Source of the DNA: Haplodiscus bocki
Lineage: Eukaryota
Direction of reading: 5' to 3'
Length of the DNA: 64,000 nucleotides
Assembly: GCA_965655095.1 (NCBI GenBank)
Contig: OZ296650.1
Span: 134,044,001-134,108,000, forward strand
The notes under the pieces were generated by a model. That model had not been told where the DNA came from. It saw only the letters and a program-made list of their open reading frames with translations, and made no database searches. Numbering within the stretch: the first letter of the stretch is position 1; the number at the start of each line of letters is the position of its first letter. Shown piece after piece: positions 1 to 64,000 of this stretch. Both the position numbers and the translations under genes were made by a program.

Positions 1-189
1 GATTAATGGTAACTAGCCATTTTCATCATTGACTTGAGACACTTGTCTCCATTGTCTCCATCAAGTCATCGTCGGCCATAGATTATGACAAGTTAAAGGC
101 CACTTTGATGACGTATCAGTGCTGATAGTAGACTAAATGTGTGTCTTTCTTTTGTCAAGTGGTGAAATTTGTGCTTTGATTTTCCTGAT

Positions 190-700
190 TTTCAGCTTTT
201 ACCAACAATAAACGTGGTTAGTGAAAGGAATCGAATCAGTTTCTGAAGGTAACATGCTGAGTTAAAACGATGCTTCTTTACTATTGATGTCTTTCAAGAG
301 TGGTTTCGATTTTAATAATTTTTTTCTTCTACAGACCGAACCAGAACTGTCGCGTTTCACAAACGTTTTTGCGTGAGGTTCTTGGAAGAGGCTATTCGGT
401 CGGTTCCGACGCATACATAACGGAGTTTTACACTTATTCCAAAATAACTTTTGAATTTTGTGTAAAAAATTACTTGTTGTCAGATAAAATGATCAGCGAA
501 CGAGCATGTTATGGATACGTTTTATTCCTGTGAAGTTTTGTCGAGGTTTCTTTTTGGATATTGCGTTTTTATATCAAATCATAAATTGTTTCACTTGAAC
601 TCGGCATCGCCAATTTCCAATCCCGCATTTGAACCCTTTCATGTAGATACTTTTTCGTATGTGATAGAAACGTATGAACTGTTCATCCTGTAATTCCTGA
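190..700 (+). pseudogene. Degenerate, possibly spliced coding remnant shared with unit 2
   Basis: Peptides GSDAYITEFYTYSKITFEFCVK and ISNHKL..PISNPAFEP match GSDAYISEFYTFFKETFEYCVK and ISNHKL..PISDPSFEP at 15.1-15.4 kb. TTTTCAG and AAG|GTAAC splice-like sites occur in both copies. Confidence 0.4.
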
Positions 701-2086
701 CTCACTGAAGTCTCAACTGATTTTGGTGAACAATTTTTGGCTTGTGTCGATAAATTCGGCGCATTAACTTTGGTAAATTACTTTGCTAACGTTTTCCTGG
801 GAGAAGAGTGCTGTGTAACGCTTGTCAGAATCGCTGGCTGACTACTAATACTCTTCAATAATTTCTAAAACTAAAAGGGGACCACGCTGTTATCATCGTA
901 CATGAAATGTTGAAATAGTTAATGGCGCATTGGAGACGTGGGAAATTGAAAAGTAAACAAAATAATCGTTACTTTTAATGTATCCCCTTGGTTGCCAACG
1001 TTGACTGGCATTAGAGGAACAATTTCTACAGGTTCAACAAAGTTGAGCATATTATTGGTTTTGCTTAGGAGGAGAACTTGCTTTCATTTACTTTTTAACC
1101 GCCTGCGGCCTAAACACCGGTCACGTAACATTTAGTGTTCGCCATTCGTTAGCTGGTGAGTTTGGTGTCAGTCATGCGGTAAACTGAAAACAAGGGATAA
1201 TTTCTTAGACAAACAGACCGTTTCCGCTGTCAGTGCGGGAATGAAAGATTACGTAACGTTCTTGTTTCACGCTTTTGAAATAAGGGTTTTATCTCTTTTC
1301 AACTGAGCAGTAAAACGCTGTAACATGATATCCTACTTTGTTCAACAGTTCAATGTCAGTTTAATTTAAGCTAATTTTTCATGTTTATTGCTTTCGATAT
1401 ATTTGCTGTTCTTATCGCCAACTACAGGACAGTTAAGTTTCCAGCAGTAAAAAGCAAGCTTCAGATTGATTGCCATTGTAGTCAGCTTGAAGTAAAGGCA
1501 GATAATTGTGTAGTCTGTGTCATTATAGGAAAATTCTTCATGATTTTCGGGTGCTCATTAAAAATAACGTTCGAATATATGAAAGGCAGAATAAACTTGA
1601 GTATTTTTTTGTTTTTGGTTGTGCTGTGCTGGCAGGGAAGAAAATGATGCATTTTTGCGTGTATCTGCAAAAGTTTATTTTCGTTTTTGTTTGTGTTTGC
1701 CAATTGTCACCATATTGAGTAAATTAATGACAAAAAGTTTGTTTCTCGTGCAGTTGTGTGAATGGTCTCTGTTTCATTCCACGTCAAAAGGGGGAAGTAA
1801 TTGGCTGGTACCAATTATCGCAAGTGAAAGTTTTTGGGGAATTTTGACATACGCCTCCTTCCTGTAGGAGTTTGCTGGTTTTTGTTGCAGACCAAAACTT
1901 GCGACCTGAAGCCAAAGATTTTATATCGGCTTCTCTTTCTTGAAGGGTTAATTTGGAAAGTAGTTTATTGCTTCTTGTAAATGTTTAGAGACTTTCATTG
2001 TGTTTTCTATGTGCTTTGCCTGTAGGACTTTTGCTATTTGATGTCGGCACGAGTGAAGCACTATATGTAAAAGGCATCTTCCCAAA

Positions 2087-2124
2087 GCCTTGGTTTCGCT
2101 CAGAGGCCTTCGCAAAACCAAGGC
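2087..2124. promoter_or_regulatory. Conserved 13-12-13 inverted repeat upstream of polyprotein (unit 1)
   Basis: GCCTTGGTTTCGC-tcagaggccttc-GCAAAACCAAGGC, one mismatch; same motif in all four units. Confidence 0.85.
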
Positions 2125-2409
2125 GCTTCTGTTTTTCATTATTCAATTCGCAATGGAAACTGTAACTGTTATGGAAACAGTCCTTTCCTAAAAACTTCAA
2201 AAAGGTTTGAAATGCAGGAAGGAATAAATATCACATTTTGTATGTCGAATTCATAGCAGCCTCTGGAGCTCTATTTATCGCAAATAGGTCATTGGCGACT
2301 TCAATTGTTTGGGGTCTGTAATTTTTTTTGTGTTTCAAATAGATATGGTAAATTTTGACATCCTGCTTCCTTTTTTTGTGCAATCAAACCTGCAATCAAA
2401 AAGCAAAAC

Positions 2410-5400
2410 ATGAAGCGTCGCCGTTGTATTTCGTGTGGACAATTTGCTGTTGCAAGCCATGTTTGCTTGAAGGACATTGATCGAGAACTTCAATCTGATG
2501 AGCGGCTGGGCGTCTTATACAAAATTCCCGACGTTTCAATCTCCGTTTCACCAGTTGCAAGAAGTGAAACTCTGAACTGTCTCTCAACTTTAGGTCTAAC
2601 TGATTTTTTAGTCTCTCCAGAAGTTTCGATCGCAAATGACAGTATCATTTGTACTTTGCGTCCGGCGCGTGTAACTGCGATTCTTGGCGATGGTAATTGT
2701 CTTTTCTCATCCTTAGCAGTTGCTCTCGGTTTGTCACAGGATTGTAGTTCAATTCTACGGAATATAATTGTTAGCAACATGATGTTCATCAACTTCCCTC
2801 CAAACAGCTTACAAACCACAATTTACTCCGCTGTTTTTCCAAACCAATACCGTGTTTTGCTTTGTACGTCGGTTCAAGAGTACCTCAGTTTGTCGAAAAT
2901 GGAAGAAAATGGAGTCTTCGGAACATGCGTTGAAATATACGCGTTTTGTCAGATTTTCCAAGTGGACGTATATTTATACCATGTTCCTCTAAAATCCTGG
3001 TTGGTTTATGAATTCTCTCTGAGCACGAATCGTCGTGGAATTTTCATTCAGCAAACCTGGAATGCAAATCACTTCGAAGTAATCAGTCAGTTGGTTTCAG
3101 TCGCAAATGAAGAAAACGTTGCAGGTTCACAAAGAATTTCGTGTCTTGGTTCCAACGCAATGCATTTGTCTTTGTCAATTTTGGGAGAAGATAATAAATC
3201 TTTCAGGTACCCAGAAAACACAACAGGGGTGCCACCAGCGAAAAAAGCAAAACACACTGCGGATCCATCCACCTGGAAGACACGCCTTGAAACTCACGTC
3301 ACACCCACTCCAAGTCAGAAATTCTGTAACGCAAAGTCTGATCAAAATTTTCCGATGCTACCGTTGTCAGAAAACGCTACCAAACCTGTTGTGGACAAAG
3401 AAATACCCAAAATCAAGGATCTGTACACTAACACTGCTACGGCTTCACACAGTGATGCGACGATTGAACAAACGACAGATGGTAAATCTAAGTCTGCTGA
3501 CGGAGAGTTTTGCGGCAAATGCTTGCGACAATCCACGCTGCAATATCCGTTAAAGCTTACTAAGAAACAAAAATCAGATTTTAAAAACAGAATGTTTGGT
3601 AACCGAATCAAGGACGCTTTTCCCATATTATGCAATCAATGTCTAATTTACTGCACTTCCGAACGCATCGAGTGGAGTCACGCATGGCCATCTGTTTTTT
3701 TCACGCTTTTGAGTGATGAAAAAATGCCCAAGGAGCAGCAGTTGAATGTTTTAACGTTGTTATCTTGGGAACTGAGACAGCAATGGATGGGTTGCTTGGA
3801 AAAATTTACTCCATGTGTCCAACAATTTCTCAATGGGAAACAAATCAATGGGAAATGTGTCGTTGACGGAACCGCTCGTTTGCATTATTTCCAGAAACTG
3901 ATCAAAACTCTTCTACAAGAACAAATTGCAGTTGCTTTGGATAAAGAACCTTACCCCAACGTTCGGTGCCCATTTGGTTGCTGGTGTTTCATTGAAGAAT
4001 CCGGTTTCATCACTGCGAAACATTTTTTGAATCTATTCGACCCAGCTTTCACATCTTTTGGAGCTTATAGTCATTTGCATCTTAGAGGAATTAGGTCAGA
4101 TTTCTTGGTTCCAACGTCATCATTGCTGAAGTTTCTAATTGCAACAACTGTGTGTGTAGACGAAGAAGAAGGATTGGTTGTTCACGCTTGCCCCATGCAC
4201 TCGAAGGGGTCGTCTGTGCAATACCTTCATCCTCCATCGCATCCTGTCCTGTCAAGAACTGCGTTAATTCACGATGAACGTTTGAGTATGGTGACACCAA
4301 CAATTTCGTGGATAACAAACATTAAAGCAAATTTCGCCAGTTATACCTACCAGTTATTGAAAGGTGTTGGCTCTTATAGTGGAATGAGTACAGTTCAGTT
4401 GCGGCGGAGAACGCGTTGGGACATCACCAGCGATATCTTGTACCACGCTGAAGGCCTCGCTTGCCGTTTTCGAGAAGATGTTAAAACGAAGATTCGTGAA
4501 TGGGTGAGAGAAGGTAAAATCGTTGAAGATGTAGCTTTGGGGATTCTTGACTATCCTGCACAGATTGAGAACATTTCAGACTGTTTGTTGCCTGCCCTTT
4601 CTACAGATTTGGAGACTTGCGTAGAATTAGCTAAAGTTCTAGATAAAAATGATAAAGTTTATTTAAACAACGTGGAAGTTTTGAGCTGTTATTCCTTCGC
4701 CCATGGAACCTGCGAGTATGGTTGTTCGCCCCCTCCTCTGAATTGTAAAGGCAGCAATGTTTTTTGGCTTGTACAAGCTGCACTGTGTCTGTCACCGTTG
4801 ATGTGTCGTTCTTTGGTAACATCAGGTAAGTATTCTGTGACCTTGAAGCCTTTGATATTTTTGCTGAGGAATGTCTTTATTACCTCAAAGGCAATGAAAA
4901 AAACCAGCAATACCCTACTTCTACAGCGCTCGGAAGAAGCAATAAACACCTTGCTAGAGAAAAACAGAACTGAAGAGCAGTTAAAAGGTGTGAAGTACTG
5001 TTGTTGCCATCTCGCAGCACAATTTTTGGCAACTGTGTCTGAGAATTTTTGCCACATCCCCTCAACGAATCGAAAAAATATAACTTGTTATACAAATGTG
5101 CAACTTCCCGTTGAAACAACTCACGCTATATTCACCACCAATTCTCCCAATAATTTGCGGAGCAAAAGCGAGCCTCCGTTAAGGTTGGTTGTCAACGATA
5201 TCGGCTATGAACTGATTGCAGTCGGCGCAAAGGATGGAGGCCCGGCCGCCGAGCCAAGGTTGATGGTTCGACATGCAGGTGACTTCCAAAAGTTCTGGCT
5301 TTTGGAGAAAAGCTGCAGATACGCTAGGAAGATGACAGAATCTAGAACTGAGGCTTTGAGTTCAGGTCTTCGTGGATATTGGACGATAGCAATTTATGAG

Positions 5401-8400
5401 AAATCAAGAAATCTTGAATTAGCTGATTTTAATTGGAACTTTCTGAGCACTTTGACGGGTCAAGGCGTCTTCATCTGTGAATCTCATGACGTTCCTTTGA
5501 CAAGAGCAGTTTTCGTTGTAGATGCACCCGTGCTTCTTTTTTGCGTTGCCCTTATTCCCAATGTAACAGTTGCGTATGCAAGCGTCACTTCAACGAAGGT
5601 CTACAGAGTCCGAATAGGCGTGTTCCTGTTGATCCAATGCCGATGTCGAAAAAGAGGGGAAATACGCAATTCTCACCTGTTAATTCAGAGTCGTCTACCA
5701 TGCAGGTTGTATCAGACACATCATCTATTGTAGAGTCAATCGAATCAAGCGAGCCTGATGCAGCAGCAATTGCCTTTGGTAGGGTGTCTAACAACAATTT
5801 TTCAGTTGTTGGGGATTTCTCTTTCGAAGTTGACAACCATGAACCTCTTGAAGACAGCATGAATGTATTGGCTAGTCTCCAAACTTGCCCTGATAAAAAA
5901 GCTCTTTTCATTGACCCACACCGAAATGAAGATCTTTTCAAACTGCCACTTCACATTCTGCTCAATTCTCAATGCAACCTTTTGTACCGGCATAAAGGGA
6001 GTCCAATCAGTTTGTCGTTGAAAGAAAAACGTTTTTTAGAAAACATTGCAGCAACTTCCACGACAGCGCTGCCTCTAATTCAACCAGAAGCTCTTTTGTT
6101 TCCATCAATTTTTTGGTGTCAAGCTAACAACGGTAGTTTTCATGGAGCAATACCAGCCGCGCTGTACAACAACTCCAAGTACAACAGACAACTGGGTTTT
6201 GCTGGTTTGGAAGACATGCTTCGTACGAGAATCAAAGATGGTTCGCTGTTGACATCATGCAATCCAACTTATTTGCAGTATGTGTTTGACAGCCTTTTGA
6301 ACATGCAGCTTCACAAAACTGATGTTAGATTGGTTTTAAATCGGGGATGGCAGGAAGTGAGTTCCGGCCCTACAAATTGTTCATTTGTTTCAACCCAAAC
6401 GTTCAAGTTTGACTGTGCGGAAAGTCGTAAAAATGTCTGTGAACTCGCAGCTTTAATTCGAGATAAAAATCCAACGTACTTTTTGACATATACTTGCAGC
6501 CAATCGACCCATCCTGGCGTTAGAAAAACTTTTCAAGCACTCTATGAAATGTACCCACCAGAAACTACAAAAAAGGAACTGCTTTCTGCCGCCATTCAAA
6601 CAGAATTGATGCCAATGCTCAGGTGTTGGTATAGAGCTTCACAATACGTAATGGAGTGGGTGAAACAGTCTCCAGAAAGACCACTGGGACCAGTATCCCA
6701 CATTTGGATGCAGTATGAATGGCAGGAGGAGACAGCCGGGTTCCCTCATTTGCATGTGATACTTTGTACTCCAGAAGACAAGTTTTCTAATGAGGTGAGA
6801 TCTCGAGTTTGCTGTTCAAAAGAAACTTTTTTGGGTGCATTAGAAAGCAGTTGCCCTCAATTAACGAAAGACGAAAGGTTGCATCTGGGTGAGTTATTCC
6901 AAAAGTATCAAATTCATAACTGTACCAAAGGGCGTCAGCGGTGCCATAAAAAAACAAATCGTCTCAATCAGCCAATTTGTCGTGTGCCAAGATATCCACC
7001 ATCGAATGCATTTTCGTTCAAAGAAGTTCCCATTAACTTCTCTTCTGAAACAATAGACTTGTTACAAGCCATGGACTTAGCAGACATTGACGTTAACACG
7101 TTGTTGCCGAAGGTCAAAAACCCTCTAATTGCCGGGAAGCATCACTATCCCACTGTTTCTAACGAGCATTTCTCGCCAACAAATGCAGCTTTGTTTTGCA
7201 CTGACACAATCAAGCACTAACGTTCAAATTTGCGACGATTACATGGCACCCCGTTACGTTGCGAAGTATGCAGCGGGCATTGAATCTCGAGCAGCAGCCA
7301 CAATTGTTGCAGGTCAGACAGAGAACAGTGTAAAGGTTCTAACAGAACCGATAAAACATGAGAAGATAGCAGGTGTTCGAGCTTGTTTGAAAAATTTGCG
7401 CCAGGAAGAGAAACGACAATCAGTAAAAGGTCGTATTGTCAGTATTACTGAATGTCTTTGGTGGTGCTTACAACTTCCTTACGTCTGCACAAATGTTGAC
7501 TTTGTACATGTGCCTACAGTTCCCAAAGAATATCGTTCAGGAATTGTAATTGAGAAACGTTTTCACAAGTCTCCGAATTTCAGCGCCACTTTCACTGATG
7601 GAGTCCGTGTGCGAAAAGAATTGTTGGAAATGCCAAAACTTCGACAATTTACAAAAAGTCAAACCCTCCTCCTTGCAGATGTTGAAAACAGTTTCATTTC
7701 TCCTGACAAGGTAACTGTTTTTGGACTGAGGCCGCCGGAACTTTTGTTCGTATCCCAGATAAAAGACTACTACAGCTGGTTTGTGCGGTGCAAACCCACA
7801 AGAACAAACTGGCTTAGCAATCACGAGAAGTTCTTGAAAAAAAGTTTACATAAAAGCTGCTGGGTTGATGCATTTGGATATTTGGTTAAACTGCGCCCAT
7901 CTGCTGTTAACTCTTTCGTAAGTCTCTGTCAAGAAAAGTTTTGTGAAGAACGGAATCAGTTCCTGAAACGCGAAATGAGGAAACACATTGTTCCCATTCT
8001 TGAAAACAAGAACAGTTCTCAGTTCGTTGCTCATTGGAGAAACTTGTCAGAAGAAGAGGCCGTTGTTTTTTTCAGCAACACTCTACCGAATAACTCAACA
8101 AAGTTTTTACTTCATCTGTTACTGACCCTCGGGAAACTTGACACTGAGTTGGACATCTTGAACGTCCAAAGTTTCAAAGAAGCTTTCATAAAAGCGGGTA
8201 TTCTGCTAAACTCAACCGTCACTGATGGCGCAGTGAAAGAAATAGCTAGGAAGTATTTGCTGGAACAGCTTCGCTTCACTCCAGGGTCATCTAAATTGAT
8301 TGAAACTTACTTGGTAATGGCCCATAGTGTTATATCGGAGGCACTGTTAATAAATAATCTATTTTTTGCTGCTGCTTTACCACCTGTTCTGGACAAAAGC

Positions 8401-10466
8401 GTCCTGGAGGAATGCGAAGAAACAGTCACAATTCAACTGGCTATGGAAAAGTGTAAAATGATAGCTTTCCTTCAGACATGTCAGACTGAATTACCTGCAG
8501 AGCAAACGATGATCGACGCCACTTTCAATACTCCAGTGCCTTGGAAGCCACTTTTACAGAAGAGCCCGGATCAAAGTAAAAACTCATATTTAGAGCAACG
8601 TCAAGTTTTGGACGAACTCATTAATTCAATAGACATGTATAAACGAGGACATTGCACTTTCATAAGACATCAGATTGTTTTCGGTCCACCAGGAAGCGGC
8701 AAAACTTTTGTGATGCTGAAATCTCTTGCTTACGCCTTATGTCAAGGATAGCATTGTGTGGTGACATCCATAGCAGCTGAAAGATCGGCTGCTTTAGCTG
8801 GAAAACATCTGAATGCTTTGATACCATTTCCAGTTGAAAAATGTTGCTCTGCAGAATCACTTTCGAAGAAGGCTCTGTCCAATTTACAACGATCTCCTAT
8901 CAAAAGCCGAGTTTTACAGCACTTAGACGTAATTTTCGTTGAAGAACTTTCGATGATATCTAGCGAGCTTTGGGCAGCGACAGATCATGTTTTGCAAGTT
9001 GTCACAGCAAATTATGTTCCTTTCGGCGGAAAACTCGTTGTCGCAACTGGTGACTTCTTTCAACTTCCCCCGCCCTCTGGATCTTACTTGATGAGTTCCT
9101 CTTTTCCTTTAACAACCTTTGCTTTCCACAATTTAAAAATTTCGTCCGAATGCGGAACAAGAACGGCCAGGAACTGTTATCATTGTTATCAGCAACGCCT
9201 AAAACAGATGCCAATGCAGAAAGAATTTGGAAAATTATGGAAAAAGATTGCAATTTTGTACAATCGTGGAACGACGTGCCGAACGACAGAATTCGAATTT
9301 TTGCTACTAGACAAGCGGAACGAAAAGCAACCGAGAATAAAATCAATGAAGTTAAATGCAGCAGAACACAATTCTTTGAAAGTGCGTCCATCGACGAAAT
9401 GTGCGTTTCGAGCACCGACAACTGGAGTGAGGCGACTGCAACAGCGTCGAAGTTCCTGAACAAAAAGTGCCTTGAGCCCCAATCACTTTTTCTATACCCC
9501 GGTGCTATTATGCGATTAACTGTCAACAAACCATCCATATCAGCATATCAAGGTCAACTTTGCGTCCTCCTGACTTTGGAGACCATTGAAAATGGTACCC
9601 TAACAGTTGCTCTTGCTCCAGCTGGTTGCAGAAAGATCCCGCCACTCTCTGTGATCAGAAACAGTTGGAGGTGTGTTGTTATTGGCAAGGAAACCGGTGT
9701 AGCCTTCCGATTAAACCATAAAACAGTGTGCAGGAGGATACAGTATCCGTTAAAGCTTTTTGTTGCGTCCACCATTCACAAGACCATGGGCGAAACTCTG
9801 CCGATGGTGGCGACGCCAATAGTGGGGTCACGAGATTTTGCTTTGTGGCTTCCTGAGCAGTTGTATGTGGTTATGAGCAGGGTAAGGAGTTTGAACCATG
9901 TGACTTTTGTGGGCACGAAGGAGGAGAATAGAAGAGCAGTTTTAGACTTAGTCCGCAAAAAATCACAGTGGGCTGAGCTGACTAATGAAATTCTGACAAA
10001 AAGTTCTGCGCGCCATCCCACAGTTTATCATGCCAAAGCATCGCCTTTTCCACCATCAACTCGTGACCTACCTACCCAAAACTTGGGTTTCTGTTACTTG
10101 CTGCAGAGTGTCCCACAAAGTCAGCTGTTGTACATTGGCTCCACTATGTCATTGGTGCGTCGTCTGAGGGAACACAATTCTGGATTAGGTTCCAAGTTCA
10201 CAAAATTTACAAATCGGTTGCCCTGGAAAGTTTGTGCCTATGTAACTGGGTTCAATTTAACCAATGCGTCTCATAGAGTCCGCGTATTTGAGAAAGAATG
10301 GCTGGATGCAGCATCGAACTACGTTAATCTCACAAAGAAAAATGTATCACTCTTCACAGCCATCAATTTAGGTGAAGACATTGCAAAAACTTGGCCGCAC
10401 AAAGAAGACGGTTTAAAACTTATTGTATGTAGTGGTGAACCCACTGCCTGTTTAAAGCCATGGTGA
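2410..10466 (+). pseudogene. OTU-Rep(HUH)-Pif1 helicase-GIY-YIG polyprotein, disrupted
   Basis: Five ORF pieces collinear with the intact unit 3 protein. Lesions: ~13-nt deletion near 5506, +1 near 7195, TAG at 8749-8751, -1 near 9137. Motifs GDGNCLF, PHLH, YVAKY, GPPGSGKT, GDFFQLPP, CYLL..LYIGST. Confidence 0.9.
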
Positions 10467-10547
10467 TCGCAATATCCATTCTGACAAGACTGCTGAAACC
10501 ATTTTCGGTTGTGCACAATGTTTCTGCGTACGCGTTGGATCCCAACT

Positions 10548-10626
10548 GCTTCGACTGCATAGTGAAGCGTTGACAGAGTTCCCTTCCTATATTCTGTATA
10601 AATTTGCATCGACTGCACAGTGTTGC
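10548..10626 (+). repeat. 21-nt hairpin repeats after polyprotein stop (unit 1)
   Basis: gcttcgactgcatagtgaagc (10548-10568) and gcatcgactgcacagtgttgc (10606-10626); weak third copy near 10663. Confidence 0.75.
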
Positions 10627-11319
10627 GAATTTCAGCATAGGACTACTGACGAAAAAATTTTGGCTCGACTGACTGCTGTGACTGTAGATTGTAACATTTT
10701 GAAATGTCAGCTCGTATTGCTCCTTCAGTGCCCTTGATAATATGCACCAGATGAACTGTTTAGAAATTTTGTTCGTGTAGTTGGGTCAGCATTTTTGATT
10801 AGTTGAATTTTCTTGCTTAGTGTAGCTTTGAGTACGTATTAGACTTCAGTTGTGGAACATGTGCTATGAAAATATATTTTATTATCCTTTACTTTCTAGA
10901 AGTTTTGTGGACAGAAAAAAAACCGATGTAATGATGGTGTATTCGAATGCATTGCTCACCTTATTTTTCTATGGCCTTAAGTGTTACTGATTGACAAAGC
11001 GTGATGCGTTGAACCGTAAGATAACTGTAATTGTAACATAACATTTCTGTGAATTAAACTCAGTGATGAAGAAGATTTGAGAACTCTGAATAATTGATGA
11101 ACTTGTCATGCTTTTTTTGAAAAACAGGTTGCTTTACTTGAAACAATAGCGCTATTTCACTGTATTAAATGCTTGAAACCGAAAATACTTGCCTGTTGAC
11201 TTTAATGAACCTTAAAGGAAAATGCGTTCACAGAATCTTTAAAAAAAGTAGAAAGCATGGCTTTGAATATTCCAATTGTTCAGTTCTCAGGCAGCTTCAA
11301 CCACGTTTGATTTCAGACT

Positions 11320-12330
11320 ATGACAACTCAAGTCAACACCTCCCAAGTAACAGCTCCAATTTTTTTGCGTCGAAGCGAAAATACGTTCGTCAGAGGTATC
11401 GTTCTAGTTACTAAGAAATACGACAAACCTTTGCAGTTGTTTAGACCGCAAAATATCAAAAACAAGAGAGGTGCCCTCGATACCACCTATGACCGATTAG
11501 TCATACTAGGCGAAATCATTTCAAAGGAATGCTTTACTGTGATTGCGGAGTCTGCAAAGAAAATCCCTTTTTTGTTCGGGGACACTCTGTTAAAAGTAGC
11601 GTCAATTGTGGACGTAAAAGAACCTGTGTTCTCCAACTTTTGTCTCGGCAATGACCGCAGTAACCCCATTTTACATGTCTTCCTTCCTTTGGAAGTCGTC
11701 ATTAACGATATTCCTTTGTTGCCAATTCCCATAGATCTCCACCCATCAACGACAGCAATGTTTCACTTTTGCTTGCCAAACATACCCCTCACCTTCTTAC
11801 AAGCAAGTGCTGTGGCTCCAACTTGCTCAGGCTTCATGTGTGACAGAGGAGAAAAACGAATTGACTCTGTATGCCCCTGTATACAAAAATCTCCTGTTTC
11901 AGCTTGGGTAATGTGCGCCCGAATTGTCAGTCGTGACATCGAAAATGAAGACGAAGACCCCCTCACGGGAGAAAAAATGCAAAGTGTTAACCTGACAAAA
12001 AAATTTTGCAGCGAAGCAATTTTTAGAACTTCATATGCATCAATCGATTCGCAACAACTGCGGAAAGCTGTTAACCAGTTGTCCCAATTTGTAAATGAGA
12101 ATGGAGGGTGGCAGTTATATGGATTTTACAAAAGTGGATCCACAATCGAAAATCTTGCACAAAACGTACAACGTGTCCGCATTTGCAAAATTACGCCTGC
12201 AGTTGAAATGCCTTTTAACTTGAAGTACAACATTGTGCCATGCAACGCCAATATTGGCAATGAGCCCCTAGCTTTGCAACATGCGAATGCTAACATCGGT
12301 GCTCCTAACAATCCGAACAACCTACGATAG
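11320..12330 (+). CDS. Conserved 336-aa accessory protein of unknown function, Cys cluster CSGFMCD..CPC
   Basis: Intact ORF; homologues of identical length at 28535 and 45301. Confidence 0.85.
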   Translation: MTTQVNTSQVTAPIFLRRSENTFVRGIVLVTKKYDKPLQLFRPQNIKNKRGALDTTYDRLVILGEIISKECFTVIAESAKKIPFLFGDTLLKVASIVDVKEPVFSNFCLGNDRSNPILHVFLPLEVVINDIPLLPIPIDLHPSTTAMFHFCLPNIPLTFLQASAVAPTCSGFMCDRGEKRIDSVCPCIQKSPVSAWVMCARIVSRDIENEDEDPLTGEKMQSVNLTKKFCSEAIFRTSYASIDSQQLRKAVNQLSQFVNENGGWQLYGFYKSGSTIENLAQNVQRVRICKITPAVEMPFNLKYNIVPCNANIGNEPLALQHANANIGAPNNPNNLR

Positions 12331-17213: not shown

Positions 17214-17251
17214 GCCTTGGTTTTGCTTCGTTAACTGCGCAAAACCAAGGC
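17214..17251. promoter_or_regulatory. 13-12-13 inverted repeat (unit 2)
   Basis: Perfect GCCTTGGTTTTGC-ttcgttaactgc-GCAAAACCAAGGC. Confidence 0.9.
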
Positions 17252-17449
17252 CCACATTGCATGTATTTTTCTGGATACTCCTTTTTTCGAATTAATTAGA
17301 AGCTACCGTTACTTGAACAGTTTGAAAGCCGAGCAAAACGATGTCATTTTGTACGTTGGTTCTATAATGGCGCCTACTCTTTACATTGTATTCACTATTA
17401 AAGATCAGTGATTGATAGACTTTTGAGCGAAGTTTGTTGTGAAAGAGTA

Positions 17450-42528: not shown

Positions 42529-42626
42529 AAAGTCGTACTTTAGGAGAAAGCTGCCCAAAAACTTATGGATTAGTTTGAGATAATTGTTTTACTTGCACAC
42601 AAACTTCCTTGCCTTGACAGCCATAC

Positions 42627-51900: not shown

Positions 51901-52451
51901 GTTTTGTGTCTCTCTGCAGAAGTTGTGCTGTTATTTGCATGTCTTTTGTGGCTTTTTACGTCAACAAAAACCACTTGTTTGTCTTCTGATTTCCGACATC
52001 TCAAAAGATGTGAAACGAAATTCCAAAATAACTTGTTTGATGAAACATGATTTTTCTCAGCAATGTAAACTACTTAGGTAGTTTTTTTGCGTTGGTTAAG
52101 CCCTTTCATTTTGATTATAACAGTTTTTGCAAAAATAAAGTAACAATCAAGTGGATTTACGCAACCAAAGTTTTCCTGTACAAAGAAATGTTCTTTTTAA
52201 TTTCCAGTTTATCGTGTGTGATTTATTGAGATTTTACTCGTGTACGATGGTGAACATTTTTTAAGTCCTGTTGTTTTTGAAAAAAAAATACCTTTAGCTG
52301 TTTTTTTCTCCAACTAATTGCTGAACACGTTTTTGCATTGACATTTCCTTGGTCTTCACTTTTTTTCCACTAGAACAAGTTGTTATGGGAACATCTGTAG
52401 CTAGATAAAACGATCTGTCTCTTAGAGTAGAAATTCATGAGATCACTGACC

Positions 52452-52489
52452 GCCTTGGTTTTGCTCAGTAGCCCTCACAAAACCAAGGC
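52452..52489. promoter_or_regulatory. 13-12-13 inverted repeat (unit 4)
   Basis: GCCTTGGTTTTGC-tcagtagccctc-ACAAAACCAAGGC, one mismatch. Confidence 0.85.
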
Positions 52490-52776
52490 TGAAAGGATTT
52501 ATGCATTTCGTTCGATATGCTATTTTTTCTCAGTTTTGTTGGGTGTTTGCTCGGATGATTTAATCCCTTCACTGAAGTTGAGTTGCAGTATGAATGTATT
52601 CATAGAGAATTTTTTTCTGTCAGGTATTTTCCCGCTTGTGTATTAGGGAAATAAATTGTTTAAAAAACGTGTTGCGCCAGTTTGAACCACTCGTTTCTTT
52701 TTCAAATAGATATGGAATGACATGATCATGACCTTCTGTTAAATTGTCACTGGCTCCTTATGACAATTTTTGAAAT

Positions 52777-55700
52777 ATGAAGCGGCGACGTTGCATTGCT
52801 TGTGGACAATTTGCTGGTAAGAACCATGAATGTGTCAAAGATATTGAAACAGAACTTCAAGCTGACGAGCCTTTAGGTGTGTTATACAAAATTCCAGACA
52901 CTGCCATATCCGTGTCACCTGCCCGAAGAAAAGATATTTTGCATTCCCTGGCTAATTTGGAGTTGAGTGACTTTCTCTTGAATCACCAAAGTACAATCCC
53001 AAATGATTGCTTCATTTCTTCTTTGCGCCCGGCGAACGTCACTCCAATTCTTGGTGACGGTAATTGCCTTTTTACTGCTTTGGCTGTTGCTCTCGGTCTG
53101 ATGCAGGATTGTGGTGAAAATATACGAAATGTAATTGTTGCAAACATGAACTTGATCAATTTCCCCCCTAATAGCCTGCAAACTGTAATTCACTCGGACG
53201 ATTTTCCCAATCAGCATCGTATTTTGACTTGTGCTTCTGTTGACGAGTACCTCCGTGTTTCGAAAATGGGCGAAAATGGTGTTTTTGGGACTTGCGTAGA
53301 AATTTATACTTTCTGTCAAGTTTTTTCAGTTGACGTTTATTTATACCATGTGCCTTTGAAATCTTGGTTGATATATGAATGTTGTTTGAATACAGACAGG
53401 CGAGGCATTTTCATTCAACAAACTAGGAGTGCAAATCACTTTGAAGTAGTCAATGAGCTCTTTTCGATTAGAATTGATGAAATTGTGTGTCCGCCAAGAA
53501 CTTCAATGGTTAACTCTTCCTTGGAATTCTCTTCGAGGATTTGTGCAGCTGAGACTCAGTTACTGAGAGCTCTTCAGGGTACAGCAGAAGAACCAGCTAC
53601 GAAAAAAACGAAGCTCAGTACTACTGATGCTAACACTTTTGAAACACATTCTCCAATGCCAGAAGTGTCTTCGCCTCACATTAGTGTCACCGCAACTTGC
53701 AACTACAACCCGCCATTCTCCCCTTCTTCGACTGAGGGCAGCAAGAAAATGACGGGAAATCATTCACCAGAATGGATGAACCTTCACAATTCTGCTTCCA
53801 GTGTGTCAGGCACTGATAAAAGCAATAGAGAAACGCATGACAAAAGTTCTGTTCCGGACAATATTGACTACTGCCAAAAATGCATGCGAAAACCAACACT
53901 CCATCATCCATTCAAGCTGGTTAGCAAAAAGAAATCAGAACTGAAGAACAGAATGTTCGGAAATCGACTTCGAGAATCCCTTGTCTATCTATGTAATTTG
54001 TGTTTATGTTATTGCACATTCGAGCGCATTGACTGGAATGAGGCATGGCCTTCTGTGTTTTTCACACTCTTAAGTGATATAAAATTAGCCAGAGAAACAC
54101 AGATAAACATTTTGGCAATATTGCCTGTGGAAATAAGGCAGCAATGGCTGGGATCTATTGGATGTTTTTCATCTAGTGTGCAGCAATATCTGAACAAAAG
54201 CAGAATCCAGGGCAAATGTGCTGTTGATGGAACCCTTCGATTGCGTCGTTTTCAACAACTATTGAGAGGTTTGGAGCAGGAAAGCATCGCACTTGCTTTA
54301 GATGAGGAACCTTACCCCAACGTCAGGTGCCCTTTCGGTTGCTGGTGTTTCATTGAAGAAGTAGGATTCATTGCAGCCAAACACTTTTTGAACCTATTTT
54401 ACCCGGAGTTTACATCTTTTCAAGCTTCTAGCCACTTGCATCTGCGCGGGATGCGATCGGATTTCTTGGTACCTACATTATCACTGCGACGATTCTTAGT
54501 TGCAGCAACATTGAGAGTGGACAAGTCGGAAGGATTGATAGTTCATGCTTGCTCCATGCACTCAAAGGGGTCCTCCGTTCATTACATTCACCCTCCTTCC
54601 CATCCTTCTTTAACACGAACAGCTCTACTCCACGAGGAGCGTTTGAGTGTGGTAGCTCCGACAATTTCCTGGATAACAAACATCAAAGCGAATTTCGCCA
54701 GTCATACATACCAGTTACTGAAAAGTATCGGTTCTTACAGTGGCATAAGTACAGTGCGGTTGAAGCGAAAAACACGTTGGGACATCACTAGCGATATCTT
54801 GTATCAGGCGGAAGGAATTTCTTGCTGTTTCAGAGACGATATTAAAGCTCTGATTCGCCAATGGGTGAGAGACGGCAAAATTGTTGATGATATTTCTTCC
54901 GGAAAGCTTCAGTATCAGCCACAGATGGCAAATGTGACCAGTTGTTTGTTGCATAGCTCTTCGACTGACTTGGAAACTTGCGTTGAGGTTGCCAAAATTG
55001 TGGACAAATGTGAAAAGCAATATTTGAACTACGTTGAAGCTTTAAGTTGTTATTCTTTTGCACAAGGTACTGACGATTTCCGTTGTTCACCCCCTCCACT
55101 GAACAATAACTGCAATAACGTCTTGTGGCTTGTACAAGCTGCAACCTGTTTGTCACCATTGATGTGTCGTTTGTTAGTTAATTCGCCCAAATACCCTGTG
55201 ACACTGAAACCCTTGTTCTGTTTGCTGAGAAATGTTTTCATTTCCCCAACGACAATGCGTAATGCAAACAGTACGATACTTCTGAGGCGATCGGAGGAAT
55301 CCATAAAGAAATTACTACAACAATGTCAAAGTGAAGACGAAGCCTCGACTAGTGCCCAATGTTGTTGCGTCCTCGGTGCGAAATTCCTTGAAATGTGTTG
55401 TGACAGTATTCGCCATATCCCTCTGCTGGAACGCAAAGCCATTACTTGTGCGTCAAATTTGGAGTTTCCTGATGTAACAACTCATGCCATTTTCACTACC
55501 ACGTCCGTCAATAATTTGCGAAACAGAAATGAACCTCCATTGAGCTTCGTTGTCTCAGGCCAGGAATATGAATTGATTGCAATGGGATCAAAAGATGCAG
55601 GACCTAAAAACGAGCCACGTTGGTTGGTTCGGCATGGAAAAGATTTCCAAAGGTTTTGGATCATTGAAAAGAACAGCAAATTCGCGAGGAAAACTGACGG

Positions 55701-58700
55701 CAATCCAACCGAGGCTATTCAGTCAGCCTTTCGTGGTTACTGGACTATTGCAATTTTTGAAAAAACAAGAAATGTTGACTTGGCCGATCTGAAGTGGCAA
55801 TTTTTGAGCAGTTTGACAGGTCAGGGCGTCTTTATATGTCAAAAGCACGATTTACCGCTGACGAGAGATTTTAGGAAAAGTACTTTTCGTTGCAGATGCG
55901 GCCTGTGCTCGTTTTTGCGCTGCCCATACTTTCAATGTCATAGCTGTATATGCAAGAGTTATTTCAAGGAAGGACTGAAGGAGACCAATAAACGTGTCCT
56001 AATAAATGCTGATCCATGCCCAAAGGAAGAGATAATGGAATTGTCTTCTGAATCTGATTCTTCAGTTTCAACTAATCCAAGAAGTGGGCCTAAGAGATTT
56101 TGTAACATGCCATTTTTTGAATCAACAGACCCTGAGGTAGCTGCAGAAACAATCGATTTTGTTACCAGCAGCAATTCCTCACTCATAGATGAACTCTTAC
56201 CCGGCAAAAACGATGATGACTTTATTGATGAGAACTTGAAATACATGGGCAAACTAAAACCTTGTCAAGATAGTAAAGCTCTTTCAGTTCAACGTAGTTG
56301 TAAGGAAGAGAACTTTAAATTACCGTTGCATATCCTTCTGAACTCTCAATGCAATCTTTTGTATCGGCGTAAGGGAAATCCCATCAGTCTAACCTTGAAA
56401 GAGAAACGTTTCGTGGAAAATATTGCTGCTATCTCAACTTCCTCGTTGCCTCTTGTTCAACCGGAAGCGTTGCTTTTCCCGTCAATTTTCTGGTCTCAGT
56501 CAAAAAACGGAAGTTTTCACGGTGCGATACCAGCAGCTCTATACAATTCATCGAAGTACAACAAACAGCTGGGTTTCGCTGGTTTGGAAGATATGCTTCG
56601 CACTCGAATAAAAGATGGGTCACTATTAACTTCTTGTAATGCTGCATATCTGCAGTACGTATTCGACTGTCTCCTGAACACTCAACTTCACAAAACTGAT
56701 GTTCGAATTGTTTTAAATCGCGGCTGGCAGGAAGTGAGTTCTGCTCCGAGTAATTGTAGATTTGTATCAACCGAAACTTTCAAGTTTGACTGTGCTGAAA
56801 GCCGGAAGAATGTGTGCGAACTCGCTGCTCTTATCAGGGAGAAAAATCCAACCTACTTTGTGACATATACTTGCGGGCAATCAACCCATCCCGGTATTAG
56901 AAAAATTTTTGAAGCACTTCATGAACTCTACCCAGAAGATACTACAACAAAGGAAGTGTTGTCAGCTGCAATTCAAGCTGAACTAATGCCAATGCTCAGG
57001 TGCTGGTATCGAGCTTCCCAATATGTCATGGAATGGATAAAGAAATCACCAGAACGTCCATTGGGACCTGTATCTCACATTTGGATGAGATATGAATGGC
57101 AAGAGGAGACTGCAGGGTTTCCACACTTGCATGCAATTTTGTGTACTCCGGAAGATAAATTTTCGAATGATGTCCGATCTCGCATATGCTGCTCAAAAGA
57201 AACGTTCTTAGGTGCCTTGGAAATCAGTTGTCCCACATTAACCAAGGGCGACCGTTTGATGCTTGCCGATTTATTTCAAAAATATCAGGTTCATAATTGT
57301 ACCAAAGGCCGTAAACGATGCCACAAGAAAACAGACAGACTCAATGAGCCTATCTGCCGTGTGCCTAAGTATCCGGCATCGCAATGTTTCTCCTTCAAAG
57401 AGGTGCCCATCAATTTCTCCGCTGAAACGTGGGATTTGCTGCAAGAATTAGGTTTAGCGGACATTGATGAAAATACTTTAACGCCAAAGGCTAAAGCACC
57501 ATTGGTAGGTGGAAAACACCATTATCCAACTGTGAGTAACGAACATTTTTCTCCCACTAATGCGGCTCTGTTTGCTCTTACACAGTCAAGTACAAATGTC
57601 CAAATTTGTGATGACTACATGGCACCACGTTACGTTGCAAAATATGCCGCTGGAATTGAATCTCGAGCAGCGGCAAATATCCTGGCGGGTGAAGCAGAGG
57701 ACAGTGTGAAAGTGTTGACACAGCCGATTGAAAACGAAAAAATAGCTGGCGTTCAAGCTACTATAAACAAGAAACTGCGGGACTATGAAAAACAGAATGC
57801 AATTACAGGGCGGATAGTAAGTATAACAGAGTGCCTCTGGTGGTGCTTACAACTCCCTTACGTTTGCACGAACGTCGATTTCGTACATGTGCCTACAGTT
57901 CCAAAAGAATATCGCTCAGGGATTGTGAAAGAGAAACATAACAACAAATTGAAATTCAGCACAACTTTTGACGAAGCAGTTCGCGTGCGCAGACAAGTTT
58001 TGCAACTTCCGAAATACCGGCAGTTCACAGAAAGTCAGGTACTTTTGCTTGCGGATGTTGAAACCAGCTTCGTTACGCCCGACAAAGTTACCCTTTTCGG
58101 ACTTCGTCCACCCGAATTAAATTTCATTTCAACTTTATCGGTTTATTACAGTTGGTTTGTTCGTTGTAAATCACAAATTGAGAGAGTCAAAAGCAATCAT
58201 GAACTGTTTGTGAAAAAAAATATCCGCAAAACTTGTTGGGTGGATGCCACAGGGTCTGTCATCAAGTTACGTCCAGCTGCTGTAGAGTCATTCATTAACG
58301 TTTGTCGTTTGAAAGGTAGTAATGAGCGGAATGAAAAGCTGAAAAATGAAATGAGAAAAAACGTCGTTCCAGTTCTTCGAAGCGGAAACAATAGCCAATT
58401 TGTTGCTCATTGGAAAAGTTTGTCCGACGAAACGGCTGTTGTTGTGTATAGCAACATTTTACCAAACAATCCCACGAAATTTTTACTGCATCTTTTGTTA
58501 ACTCTGGGAGATTTCATTACAGAAATAGACATTTTAAATGTTCAATCATTCAAAGATGCTTTCGTAGCAGCCAATGTTGTTCCCAGCTGCGTCAATGAGA
58601 TGACGGTAAAAACTGTGACACGTAAGTATTTGTTGGAACAACTACGTTTTACACCCGGATCCTCGAAGTTAATCGAAAAATACCTTTTGATGGCACATGG

Positions 58701-60827
58701 TGTCCTTTCCGAAGCCCTTTTAAGAAACAATCTTTATTTTGCGGCTGCACTACCGCCTGCCCTTGATATAAAAGTCATGGAAGAAAGTGATGAAGCTTTA
58801 ACTCTTCAATTAGTGTTGGAAAAAAGTAAAATGGTGGCTTTTCTTCACACATGTCAAACTCAATTGCCAAATGAACAGACCATGTTAGATTCAACTGTCA
58901 ATGCCCAGTCCCGTGGAAGCCAAAGATACAAAAGAGCCCTGATCAGTGTAAAAATTCGTACCTTGAGCAATGCCGGACTTTAGACAGGCTGATGCTGTCA
59001 ATCGATAAATACAAGCGGCGACTGTGCTTTTTCATAAGACATCAAGTTGTCTTCGGTCCGCCTGGAAGTGGCAAAACTTTTGTGATGCTGAAATCACTTG
59101 CGTTTGCCCTCTGTCAAGGATTACACTGTGTTGTGACCTCTTTAGCGGCTGAGAGATCTGCTGCTCTAGCGGGAAGACATCTAAATGCCTTAATTCCTTT
59201 TCCGGTTGAAAAAAGTTCTTCTGCTGAGTCGCTTGCAAAGACTGCGTTGTCCAACTTACAGCGTTCCCCTGTTAAAACCCGGTTCCTGCAAAATGTTGAT
59301 GTGTTTTTTATTGAAGAAATGTCGATGATCTCAAGCGAAATATGGGCAGCAACTGATCATGTGTTGCAAGTCATAACCTCGAATTATGTTCCTTTCGGTG
59401 GAAAATTGGTCATTGCAACTGGGGATTTCTTTCAACTTCCTCCGCCTTCGGGTTCCTATCTGATGAGCTCGTCATTCCCTCTAACCACCTTCGCCTTCCA
59501 CAACTTGAAGAATTTCGTTAGGATGCAAAACAAAAACGGCCAAGAACTACTGTCTCTAATGTCTTCAGTCCCCAAAACAGATGCCAATGCAAAGCGCATT
59601 TGGGAAATCATTGAAAAAAGTTGCAACTTTGTGGAGTCGTGGTCCGACGTGCCTAGCGATAGTATCAGAATTTTCGCTACACGGCAAGCTGAGCGTAAAG
59701 CAACTGAAAACAAGATAACCGACGTTAAAAACAGTGGAACTCAATATTATGAACACATGGCAGTAGATGAAATGTGTTTGTCTAGCACTGAAAACTGGAC
59801 CGAAGCGTCAACAACGACTTCCAATTTCCTCAACAAGAAATGCCTCGAACCCGGGTCCTTGTTCCTTTACCCAGGGGCCATTCTACGATTAACAGTTAAT
59901 AAGCCATCAATACAAGCTTATCAGGGCCAACTTTGTGTTCTAGTCTCTATGGAAAGCATTGAAAATGGGAGTGTGACAGTTGCTCTAGCTCCAGCTGGTT
60001 GCCGAACTATTCCTCCGCTGTCAGTTATGACAAACACTTGGCGATGTGTTGTTATCAATAAAGAGATCGGCGTGACAATTCGGTTGAACCATAAAACAGT
60101 ATGTCGCAGAATCCAGTTCCCTCTGAAGCTGTTTGTAGCTTCGACCATCCACAAAACCATGGGTGAAACGTTGCCTATGGTGGCCACTCAAATTGTGGGG
60201 TCTAGGGAGTTTAGTTTGTGGCTTCCGGAGCAACTATATGTAGTCATGAGTAGAGTAAGAAATTTAAGCCACGTAACGTTTGTGGGAACAAGAGAAGCTA
60301 ACAAGAAAACGATTCTTGATCTAACGCGTAAGAAATCACAGTGGTCTGAGCTAACGAATGAAATTTTGACAAAAAGTTGCACGAAAGATGCTTCAATTGA
60401 CCTTGCCAAAGCATCCCCTTTTCCGCCTTCAGTGCAAGAGTTGCCGACGCAAGCTTTGGGTTTTTGTTACTTGCTGCAAAGTGTTCCTCAAAAGAACGTA
60501 TTGTATATTGGCTCAACGATGTCCTTGGTTCGTCGTGCTCGAGAGCATAATGCAGGCTTGGGGTCGGCATTCACGAGGGTGCCAACTCGAATGCCGTGGA
60601 TAGTTTGTGCCTATGTTACTGGTTTCGACAGGACGAATGCTGGCCAAAGAATCCGACTTTTTGAAAAAGAATGGCTCGATGCTGCTTCACTTTATGTCAA
60701 TGTCAAGAAGAGCAATGTTTCACTTCCCACAGCCATCTCCTTAGCTGAAAACATTGCTAGAACATGGGCACACAGAGAAGACAATTTGAAAGTTGTAGTG
60801 TGTTCCAACCAATCGAATGCTTTCTAA
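52777..60827 (+). pseudogene. OTU-Rep-Pif1-GIY-YIG polyprotein with one -1 frameshift (real lesion or assembly error)
   Basis: ORFs 52777-58983 and 58992-60827 join if one C is restored near 58905 (aat gcc [c]ca gtc ccg tgg = NAPVPW, compare TPVPW in unit 1). All catalytic motifs intact. Confidence 0.88.
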
Positions 60828-60923
60828 AAAACTCTATCAGAGACTTTGTTGTCAAAATTTTTTTCGATCGTTACTTTGCTTCTCTACGAGTCCAAAATTT
60901 TTTCAATGCACTGACAAACAAAT

Positions 60924-61077
60924 GCTTCGACTGCATAGTGGAGCCCCTCAGGACGTTTCGCTTCTCGAGTATAATGCAGCCGCTTCGACTGCAAAAGTTC
61001 TGGTTTTTTCTGCAGGCTTTACAACAAAATAGCCCCGGATTTCATTTACATTGTGTGCTTCGACTGCATAGTGTTGC
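60924..61077 (+). repeat. Three 21-nt hairpin repeats after polyprotein stop (unit 4)
   Basis: gcttcgactgcatagtggagc (60924), gcttcgactgcaaaag.. (60982, partial), gcttcgactgcatagtgttgc (61057). Confidence 0.8.
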
Positions 61078-64000
61078 ATGCAAACCGCCTTGTTTACTAT
61101 GTTGACATCATTGTGCTTTATCTGCAAACTTTTTATCTTTTCAAAATAATTCAATGTCCATTTCTTGCATCTGAAAAACCAGTTGAACAGATTACAATAG
61201 CTTTAACTTGTGTCTTATTGCTAACTTAACTAGTTTTATAATAAAGTGCTTTTTCTGATGAACTCCCTCAAACCTGTTCCCTTGTCTTTTTGTGTTTCTA
61301 TTCGTTGGGCTACCCATTTCTGTTTTTTGTATGAAATCAATTGCATCTTTAATTTTCGCCGTGTTTTACAATAGTTACACTTTTCAAGAAGTACAGCAAG
61401 TTACTGTAGTTGTAGTATGCATAGTCCGCAAAATTAGTTTAAAGTTAAAACTGACTTGTTCCCTTAGTTTTTTCAATAGTTTCAACGAAGTTCTCCGAAG
61501 GTGAGCGTTTTTGTTCGAAAATTGTTTGTTTTCCCAGATAGTGGACCATATTATGTGAAGCCAGATCTGAAACTTGGATTATAAACTATAGGTTAATGAG
61601 CATCCCGTATTGTCAGCAAAAGAACGATATATTTTCAGTGGATGCTTTGCGGCACAATGTTTTAGTTTCCATCTTTGTCTGAACAAAAGACCATACTTGA
61701 AAAAATTGAATAAACCTGAAATGTTTGATTTGAAATTTTTGTTATTCGTTTGCAGTATCATTTTGGCTATTTTCTGGAAAATGTAATTGCCTCAGAGGCT
61801 GTCGTTGGGTAACTGCCACTGATATCTCGGGGACTTCCAAGGGAAGTGCCGAAGTTCTTATGGGTTTCTTTGTTAAAAAGTTTCTCTCAAAATTTTCATT
61901 TCCTGGTAGCGAAAACAGATATTATGAATTTGAGCACACTTGAACAAACGTAGGATAATTTTGTGACGCACTTAATCTTGGGAACTTTAGAAATAATTTC
62001 AGCATTTTAACGAAAACTCCATTTCTGAACGAACCTCTTGTGTCCGATCATAAGTTCTATAAGAAATTGAATTTGTTAGAAGTCATCATGTGTGTACTAT
62101 TTGAAGCATTGGTTGTTATAACTTTAAATTGATATTGGCCGCACGTTGGTACCCACCGAAATAAATTTCAACAAGTTTTTAATGCTTCTTTGTGTTAACT
62201 GTAAAACAACGCAAACTTTGTGTTGCTGTGCTGAATTTGACTGAAACCGCTTGGAGCTTCGTAAATAGGCACTGTCCAATTAACGACTGGAATTTACTCG
62301 TTTTTGCGTCGAACCATTTTTTAATAGTCAAATGCCTAAAGAATCAGTCCTAATGATTCGTGGCTGTTGGATTTCGTGCCTTAACATTGTGTACTTTTGA
62401 GAGTTAAAAGAGGAGTTTTGAGATAACCCGTCAACAAAATGATGATTAATCGGTTGATCATGTGTAGCTGCCTTCTATGTGACTGCTAGATTTTTGAGAT
62501 CATTTCCATTTCGGATAACTGTCAATCAGGCGGCTGCGAGCAACCAACCAAGACTGCAAACTCTGCAATATGTTTGATGTTTTTGCAGCATTAAAAAGTG
62601 TCGCCCTCCGGCAATTCGCAATGAAACGAATCATAATTTTTACTGTGTGAAAGTCCTTTGTCTTGCATTTGTTGCATTGAATCGAATTTTTGCTGGTGCT
62701 TCCCCCCTTGCAATCGTAATCGTGTCCCAAAACTCGCACTTCTCACGTCAGAAACCATTTTTGTTTAATTTTTTCTTCCATGAGAAAATGACTATTTCAG
62801 CAACAGTCACTCCAAATGCAACTGATTGTTTTCCAATTTCCATCAAACGCTTGGCTTTTTCAATGCGCTACGAATCAATTATCTCAGGGAAAAACTGATG
62901 ATATTTCTTAGCCACATGCAGTTCATCGATTCTTCATCTTTTGAGTGAATTCAGATTTTTGCAGTACATTTGTCAGAAAAGTACGTGTGCAATCTTGCTG
63001 AATTTTTTTAATGATGACACGTTTTGTACTTTCATAGTTAATCGTTTTCGACTACTTTGCGTAAAGTTTCTTTTTTGGAAAACAGAAACAACTCATCAAA
63101 GATCCTTGTCTGAGCCATTTCACAAACTGAAACGTCATACATAAGAGTCAAATAAGTTGCAATCACAATATTTTCCTTGTATTTACAATTTGAAATGTAC
63201 TACTTTTGAACTGATTGCTTGTCCTTTCTCTAAAATGCGGTTCATTACAAAAACGATCATGGTTGCGATCATAACTTTTTGATAACAATTGTAAGCTTTT
63301 AGCTTGTTCTGGGTGTCCTGGAAGATTTTAATATCCAAGAAAAAGTTTCTTTTGAGGAAATTTTGACTTTGCAATTGCGCGGTCAAACTGGAACAAATGA
63401 TAAGTGTGCAAACAGGAACTACAGTTTGTTATCATATTACTCTCTTGATTGACACTGTTTAAGGCCACTGTGCTTTTCTTCGCATAACTTGGTTTGAATC
63501 AAATTTTCACGATGTCAATGCCCACGCCTCATAAAAGTTGAGTCCCAACAAGCTGTTTCAATTTTTGACTATTGCTCTCTTTCCACAATTTGCCTCAATT
63601 CCTATTTCTTAAGTAAATATATATCCATTGTGGCTCTAGTTTCACATTTGGCTTTTCCTCATTGTATTGCTTGTTGCACTGTACAATAGCACGGCCTCTT
63701 GAATACGTCGTATCTCAGTTGTATTACAGCGCAGACTTTCTAAATGAAATACTTGTAGAAAACTTTTGTCGATATTAAACGGTGATATGAAGTTCTGCCG
63801 CGGAATGTCCACCAGTCGAATTTTTTTGGTAGCTTATGAGTTCTCCTTCGTTTTATATGGATTATCAAATTGTGATTCACCGAATAACTGATTGAAAGTT
63901 AGTGGCAATGAAAGATAGTGGCTTTTATCCGAAAGCATCTTTTTGATTATGTACCAGCGTTTTTCTTCCGTTTCGTCTTCTTTGACCTCCATTGTGTAAT

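Follow-up and report, generated by a model that had tools for sequence, protein, structure and literature searches.

The stretch of contig OZ296650.1 of Haplodiscus bocki analyzed here (positions 134,044,001 to 134,108,000, 64,000 bp, referred to as the window; 39-40% GC, without N) carries on a single strand four diverged Helitron-like elements (HLEs) and a gene-less mini-unit of 1,044 bp, which abut head to tail at an invariant 17-bp junction. Each element encodes a RepHel transposase, i.e., an HUH Rep domain and a PIF1 helicase in one open reading frame (ORF). With a probability of roughly 60%, we propose that RepHel builds this array by cutting and rejoining units at the junction and by inserting them into resident junctions. 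The four long RepHel reading frames belong to one family and are all on the plus strand. Only Unit 2, Unit 3, and the mini-unit are complete in the window, the start of Unit 1 and the end of Unit 4 lying beyond it (Table 1). The same-strand stack described by an earlier interpretation of this DNA (the sequence-only reading) was confirmed for all units, except that four joints are in view rather than five.

The four joints share the 17-mer GACCACCCAGTGGAGGC, which is present on the plus strand only and has no further occurrence in the window with up to 3 mismatches. At that tolerance, 0.05 occurrences are expected by chance, and none of 100 shuffled sequences reached four. Neither host sequence nor another transposon was detected at any of the four joints in the 64 kb. 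ORFs of at least 90 aa and self-matches revealed transposons of one clade only, although decayed foreign fragments could escape such a search. The common orientation of the five units, taken alone, is weak evidence (1 in 16); what lies beyond chance is their exact abutment at one invariant site. The cores are associated with four copies (13382-14014, 30275-30918, 47299-47950, and 48367-48998; 63-89% identical) of a module of about 640 bp with a GC-rich end. The left part of the mini-unit, about 400 bp, is its own and contains a 13-bp inverted repeat; the module follows (89% identical to that of Unit 3). The mini-unit represents a non-autonomous family of which a second occurrence was found outside the window (L003, see below). 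No tandem repeat, tRNA, or credible Rfam family was detected in the window, indicating that the core does not correspond to any known RNA gene serving as a target.

Matching DNA was detected in 18 runs from 7 studies, labeled as coral or coral-reef metagenomes or as coded organisms A to D. The pattern used for the metagenome scan crosses the core and detects joints only, being blind to solo ends. It returned six loci, three of which (L001 to L003) are AT-rich element joints in short contigs of 1.0 to 4.1 kb. The others (L004 to L006) were discarded as chance matches (60-62% GC, with similarity limited to the pattern). In L001, the Unit 2 family (82% identity) is located behind an end of the Unit 3/mini type, the left 85 nt being 88-89% identical to Unit 3 and the mini-unit versus 68% to Unit 1. 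In L002, the same family (92.7% identity over 4,005 bp) follows a new type of end; relative to the window, identity is 97% over the right 150 nt and 58% over the left 85 nt. This new end also precedes the mini family (84.5% identity) in L003. Three upstream ends thus precede the Unit 2 family (Unit 1 type in the window, Unit 3/mini type in L001, and the new type in L002), and two precede the mini family (Unit 3 in the window and the new type in L003). The letters on the left follow the upstream unit up to position -1 and those on the right follow the downstream family from position +2, indicating that each swap occurred inside 17 to 18 bp. Insertion beside the terminal motif of a resident copy, an option raised by the sequence-only reading, gains direct support from the mapping of the swaps in these three contigs to the core. 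Among the pieces listed (32 of approximately 5,660), contigs of run X7 (at 30875) and of runs X1 and X2 (at 48959) end at or in the core, as expected if several neighbors branch there. Summed contig depth rises at the core, a value that does not measure copy number. A viral collection gave no match for three patterns, one chance GC-rich match for the core, and no encoded relatives. In prokaryote genomes, all nine matches to the end-only pattern were due to chance, without further similarity.

The RepHel proteins are 39 to 86% identical depending on the segment, Unit 2 being 39-65% identical to the others versus 56-86% among Units 1, 3, and 4, as anticipated from the sequence alone, where the polyproteins had been described as diverged and that of Unit 2 as the most divergent. 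The number of synonymous substitutions per site (dS) was 1.75 to 4.15, with nonsynonymous-to-synonymous ratios (dN/dS) of 0.05 to 0.12, in five comparisons; the sixth, which involves Unit 2, was saturated. This divergence under purifying selection indicates that the array is not a clonal or fresh rolling-circle concatemer, whose adjacent units would be nearly identical, and the exclusion of that model in the sequence-only reading holds. The families diverged as working elements. The sets of frameshifts and stops also differ between Units 1, 2, 3, and 4, as had been claimed. Near-identical sisters are present in the protein collection for Unit 2 (P0030, 97%), Unit 3 (P0001, 96%, 165 member sequences), and Unit 4 (P0002, 99%, open across the position of the Unit 4 frameshift); they could derive from different loci or from this locus as sampled elsewhere. 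Out of 7,999 scored candidates, 41 relatives were retrieved, down to 26% identity (40 strong, one named from Perkinsus olseni). Their tree comprises 44 of 45 rows (P0041 was dropped) and consists of database relatives only, without reference HLE sequences.

RepHel, with HUH Rep and PIF1 in one ORF, and the subterminal hairpin place the elements in the Helitron superfamily. Pfam analyses revealed the same domain order in the four proteins, namely OTU, Helitron_like_N, PIF1, and GIY-YIG. The PIF1 match exceeds the cut-off. The Helitron_like_N match (26-28 bits, E value of 1e-5) is under the cut-off of 28.9, which a relative (P0007) exceeds at 33.4. An alignment of 41 sequences shows conservation of both the HUH and the Y2-type motifs. 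For the C-terminal GIY-YIG domain, Slx1 is the nearest among solved structures; no match to an apurinic/apyrimidinic (AP) endonuclease was found in RepHel. In the best stretch, similarity to Helraiser is confined to the helicase (E values of 3e-5 for the single sequence and 2e-22 for the profile).

Helraiser forms precise end-to-end circles whose joint is cleaved precisely (PMC5876387; this and the other papers are cited for the part of their text that was available). By analogy with this system, and from the domains of RepHel, the elements would transpose by a rolling-circle process involving a circular intermediate. Since Helraiser cleaves its own end joint, a chromosomal joint would be a natural substrate for RepHel, and the HUH domain alone would suffice. 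RepHel would nick one strand within the core and one unit would be peeled off up to the next core, closure of the circle recreating the core at its joint. A chromosomal core nicked in the same way would accept the circle, forcing its orientation and leaving two cores. Since a match of the core is all that is required, insertion would work between families, and the mini-unit would be mobilized in trans. The displaced strand could be coated by the predicted oligonucleotide-binding (OB)-fold protein encoded downstream of RepHel, and the Slx1-like GIY-YIG domain may resolve a branched intermediate. The interiors of the units would additionally be reshuffled by ordinary recombination. More tentatively, and in our judgment possible though somewhat short of even odds, the elements could represent a widespread Helitron lineage of their own, which bears a fused Slx1-like nuclease and targets itself obligatorily. 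RepHel would then act as a site-specific integrase, and diverged families and mini-units would build integron-like cassette arrays that swap modules and spare host genes.

Several observations weigh against insertion at resident junctions. The dS between Units 1 and 3 is 0.12 for ORF2, the OB-fold gene, versus 1.75-1.88 for RepHel, indicating that recombination is not confined to the core. A contig of run X8 (organism B), among the pieces listed, keeps a Unit 2-like end beside a Unit 3 start (30567-31233), indicating that some neighbors are old or recurrent. The outside joints number only three, involve related rather than identical families, and do not include presence/absence within a population, and any dispersed copies would escape the joint-only scan. 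A bulged GC hairpin precedes the core, its shape being kept with differing (compensatory) letters in 5 of the 7 joints, but it is imperfect or weaker in Units 1 and 2. Finally, the signals of the core may be compatible with a nick on either strand and at more than one position. Two hairpins lie before CCAG|TG on the coding strand, on which the core contains neither TC nor CTRR. The opposite strand reads CTGG-GTGG-TC, i.e., both canonical Helitron signals 4 nt apart, in which case the long module would be the origin end. IS91 has a comparable arrangement at its origin end.

The internal mosaics would be explained by an old rolling-circle tandem array that diversified in place, host recombination or conversion reshuffling the units and the core being invariant only as the start and stop signal that each requires. 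Between Units 1 and 3, identity is 70-78% in RepHel, 88-94% in the ORF2 region, and 78-81% in the module, indicating a recent exchange of the region that holds the OB-fold gene. Along the units, identity moves from about 75% to 93% and then to 80%, with steps near 10820 and 13270 (44802 and 47250 in Unit 3). The leaders of Units 1 (9-1114) and 2 (14750-15846) are 73% identical over 1.1 kb, whereas their proteins form the most distant pair; this common leader has no open frame and no codon phase. These patterns point to a second kind of exchange acting within units. Together with the neighbor pair that recurs in run X8 and the clonal tandem Helitron arrays of plants and bats (cited in PMC5876387 and PMC5148889), they argue for diversification in place. 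However, crossovers between members of the same family within long homology cannot create new end-start joints, and all three outside joints switch within 17 to 18 bp although about 640 bp of homology adjoins. The dN/dS of 0.05-0.12 also argues that the lineages stayed active rather than decayed in place. We regard this explanation as unlikely: the old array suggested by the sequence-only reading accounts for the internal mosaicism of the units, but this is only part of what was found.

Ordinary insertion at many sites, with a partial preference for neighbors or their capture by read-through, would make the window and the three contigs a stacked minority. The blindness of the scan to solo ends and a loose-end table that covers 24 of 782 rows leave room for such dispersed copies, and occasional self-insertion is reported for Fusarium Helitrons (PMC5148889). 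This explanation is quite improbable: all four joints of the 64 kb are exact, the units follow one another without intervening host DNA or other transposons, and five different starts or ends would need to have hit the same base by chance.

The single strand of all units and the lesions in three of the four RepHels would be expected for a host-selected, uni-strand cluster of PIWI-interacting RNAs (piRNAs) trapping these elements, which the sequence-only reading had compared to flamenco. Clusters of the flamenco type consist of nested fragments from many transposon classes. The single clade, unit-length copies, exact abutment, and intact RepHel found here leave that comparison unsupported, and the orientation is already forced by the proposed junction mechanism; we hold such a cluster to be very unlikely. 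Assembly chimeras formed at the common core are hardly credible as the source of the swapped joints, despite the shortness of the L001 to L003 metagenome contigs, because joints that differ on both sides have only 17 to 22 identical letters in common, less than the size of a read, and because two datasets contain the new end type, each in front of a different family.

The array was compared with known systems. HLE1/Helraiser (PMC5876387, PMC11417382) similarly combines HUH Rep and PIF1 in one protein and displays a subterminal hairpin, an RPA-like gene after RepHel, no observed target-site duplication, and head-to-tail joints. It differs from the present elements, which encode a protein of 2,700 aa with a C-terminal Slx1-like GIY-YIG domain, and may also differ in its TC and CTRR termini, which are absent here from the core on the coding strand. 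Helraiser inserts at AT, whereas all seven joints sampled here, in a sampling confined to joints, are element to element at the core. HLE2 elements (Helitron2/Helentron; PMC3627910, PMC11417382) share OTU upstream of Rep and hairpins flanking the joint. Unlike in HLE2, no AP endonuclease match, no asymmetric inverted repeat of 8 to 15 bp, and no TT target were found; in all seven joints, perfect inverted repeats between a start and the preceding end reach at most 5 to 7 bp. Helitron2 starts with T (PMC3627910), and one Sphagnum HLE2 family carries GIY-YIG (PMC11417382), a point of possible relevance to how novel the domain fusion is. In third-clade Helitrons of Paramecium (PMC13085455), the transposase ORFs are likewise very long and under purifying selection, non-autonomous derivatives occur, ends are common across families, and the orientation bias is absolute, for which sequence-specific insertion is given as the cause. 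Their right terminal sequence ends in CCAA, the core here holding CCAG. Targeting of telomeric repeats, with corresponding flanks, has been proposed for them, whereas no telomeric runs were found here, and GIY and OTU are absent from the available main text of that paper. Head-to-tail clustering is also seen in the tandem concatemers that Helitrons form in plant centromeres and in Helitron-like subtelomeric repeats of cnidarians (as cited in PMC13404089 and PMC11934779); these are described as rolling-circle concatemers or short derived repeats, unlike the 17-kb coding units in variable order, from families with saturated synonymous divergence, described here.

Neither a mixed-family Helitron array with an invariant junction nor junction targeting was found in the literature searched, the scope of which leaves out subscription journals and Repbase; the available text of PMC6431247 and of bioRxiv 10.64898/2026.09.17.752431 contains nothing on such a layout. 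Tandem Helitrons, self-insertion in Fusarium, and telomere-targeted Helitrons are already known. Reuse of the nick site as a target, or pile-ups of diverged copies at one site in the same orientation, is found with TrwC at oriT, AAV Rep at AAVS1, IS91, phage arrays at dif, and HeT-A/TART. These involve other enzymes and hosts, and to our knowledge no Helitron array is among them. The prevailing view is that Helitrons are nearly untargeted (AT or TT); their target choice and joining are poorly understood. The invariant junction, the intact transposase of Unit 3, and the 1-kb non-autonomous donor make target choice testable in vitro. If insertion into resident junctions is correct, rolling-circle transposons would gain a safe-haven strategy, namely insertion into oneself, mixed-family tandem arrays would be explained without host selection, and a sequence-specific eukaryotic integrase carrying about 17 kb would be at hand.

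Table 1. Features of the window (positions in the 64,000-bp stretch)
Feature	Position	Strand	Remarks
Unit 1	1..13968	+	start outside window
Unit 2	13969..30874	+	complete; most diverged family; 16,906 bp core to core
Unit 3	30875..47908	+	complete; 17,034 bp core to core
Mini-unit	47909..48952	+	gene-less; 1,044 bp core to core
Unit 4	48953..64000	+	ORF2 and right end outside window
Junction core Unit 1/Unit 2	13969..13985	+	
Junction core Unit 2/Unit 3	30875..30891	+	
Junction core Unit 3/mini-unit	47909..47925	+	
Junction core mini-unit/Unit 4	48953..48969	+	
Unit 1 right-end module up to core	13382..13968	+	CGTCATA/TATGACG repeats and GC-rich hairpin
Unit 2 right-end module up to core	30275..30874	+	
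Unit 3 right-end module up to core	47299..47908	+	
Unit 1 RepHel	2410..10466	+	three frameshifts; stop at 8749
Unit 2 RepHel	17450..25529	+	one frameshift near 21950-22020; stops at 23208 and 23493
Unit 3 RepHel	34471..42528	+	intact; 2,691 codons stop to stop; HUH motif FPHLH, Y2-type RYVAKY
Unit 4 RepHel	52777..60827	+	one frameshift near 58900
Unit 1 ORF2	11320..12330	+	open; RPA/POT1-like OB fold predicted from Unit 2 copy
Unit 2 ORF2	28532..29545	+	337 aa; OB fold predicted (model pLDDT 91); best matches RPA, Teb1, TEBP, CST
Unit 3 ORF2	45301..46311	+	premature stop at 46108
Unit 2 two-exon gene, presumably SGNH/GDSL-like	26446..27210	+	GT-AG intron 26662-26919; stop in exon 2
Unit 3 two-exon gene, presumably SGNH/GDSL-like	43106..43858	+	GT-AG intron 43322-43579
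Palindrome CCTTGGTTT..CAAAACCAAGG	34170..34212	.	copies also at 2088, 17215, 52453; L002 3366
CGACTGCA-type bulged-hairpin motifs	42624..42775	+	also 10545, 10603 (to 10630), 25566, 60921-61080

ORF2, of about 337 aa, is located downstream of RepHel in Units 1 to 3. No Pfam or PDB sequence match was obtained for its product. A structural model of the Unit 2 protein, built from 134 sequences with a predicted local distance difference test (pLDDT) score of 91, matched RPA in Foldseek (E value of 4e-5). In a VIA comparison, it matched Teb1 (Z of 9.7, root mean square deviation of 4.0, 104 aligned) and RPA70 (Z of 9.1). The model identifies a probable OB fold of the RPA/POT1 type, and binding to single-stranded DNA is predicted. 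An earlier model derived from 17 sequences was discarded (pLDDT of 33). The family of this gene (28532-29545) comprises 370 clusters at 50% identity, and its 134 aligned members have no fitting Pfam family. The two-exon genes of Units 2 and 3, which we take to be SGNH/GDSL-like from motifs, gave no Pfam match (exon 1 for Unit 2). Their GT-AG introns identify the DNA as eukaryotic.

In RepHel of Unit 3, about 760 residues between OTU and Rep (35620-37899) contain invariant Cys/His clusters without an identified domain; atlas matches of this stretch were all below 0.9. Among the relatives, five diverged pairs (P0003 and P0011, P0012 and P0018, P0016 and P0044, P0021 and P0048, and P0006 and P0053) have longest contigs of equal size, a hint of co-location in other assemblies. 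The longest contigs of P0001, P0034, and P0035 are 17.3 to 17.6 kb, near the size of one unit, and could be collapsed arrays, circles, or chance. A palindrome with 13-bp arms is located 235 to 324 bp upstream of every RepHel ATG, the remaining leader sequence not being common, and is possibly a promoter or autoregulatory site. One to three CGACTGCA hairpin motifs lie directly 3' of each RepHel stop.

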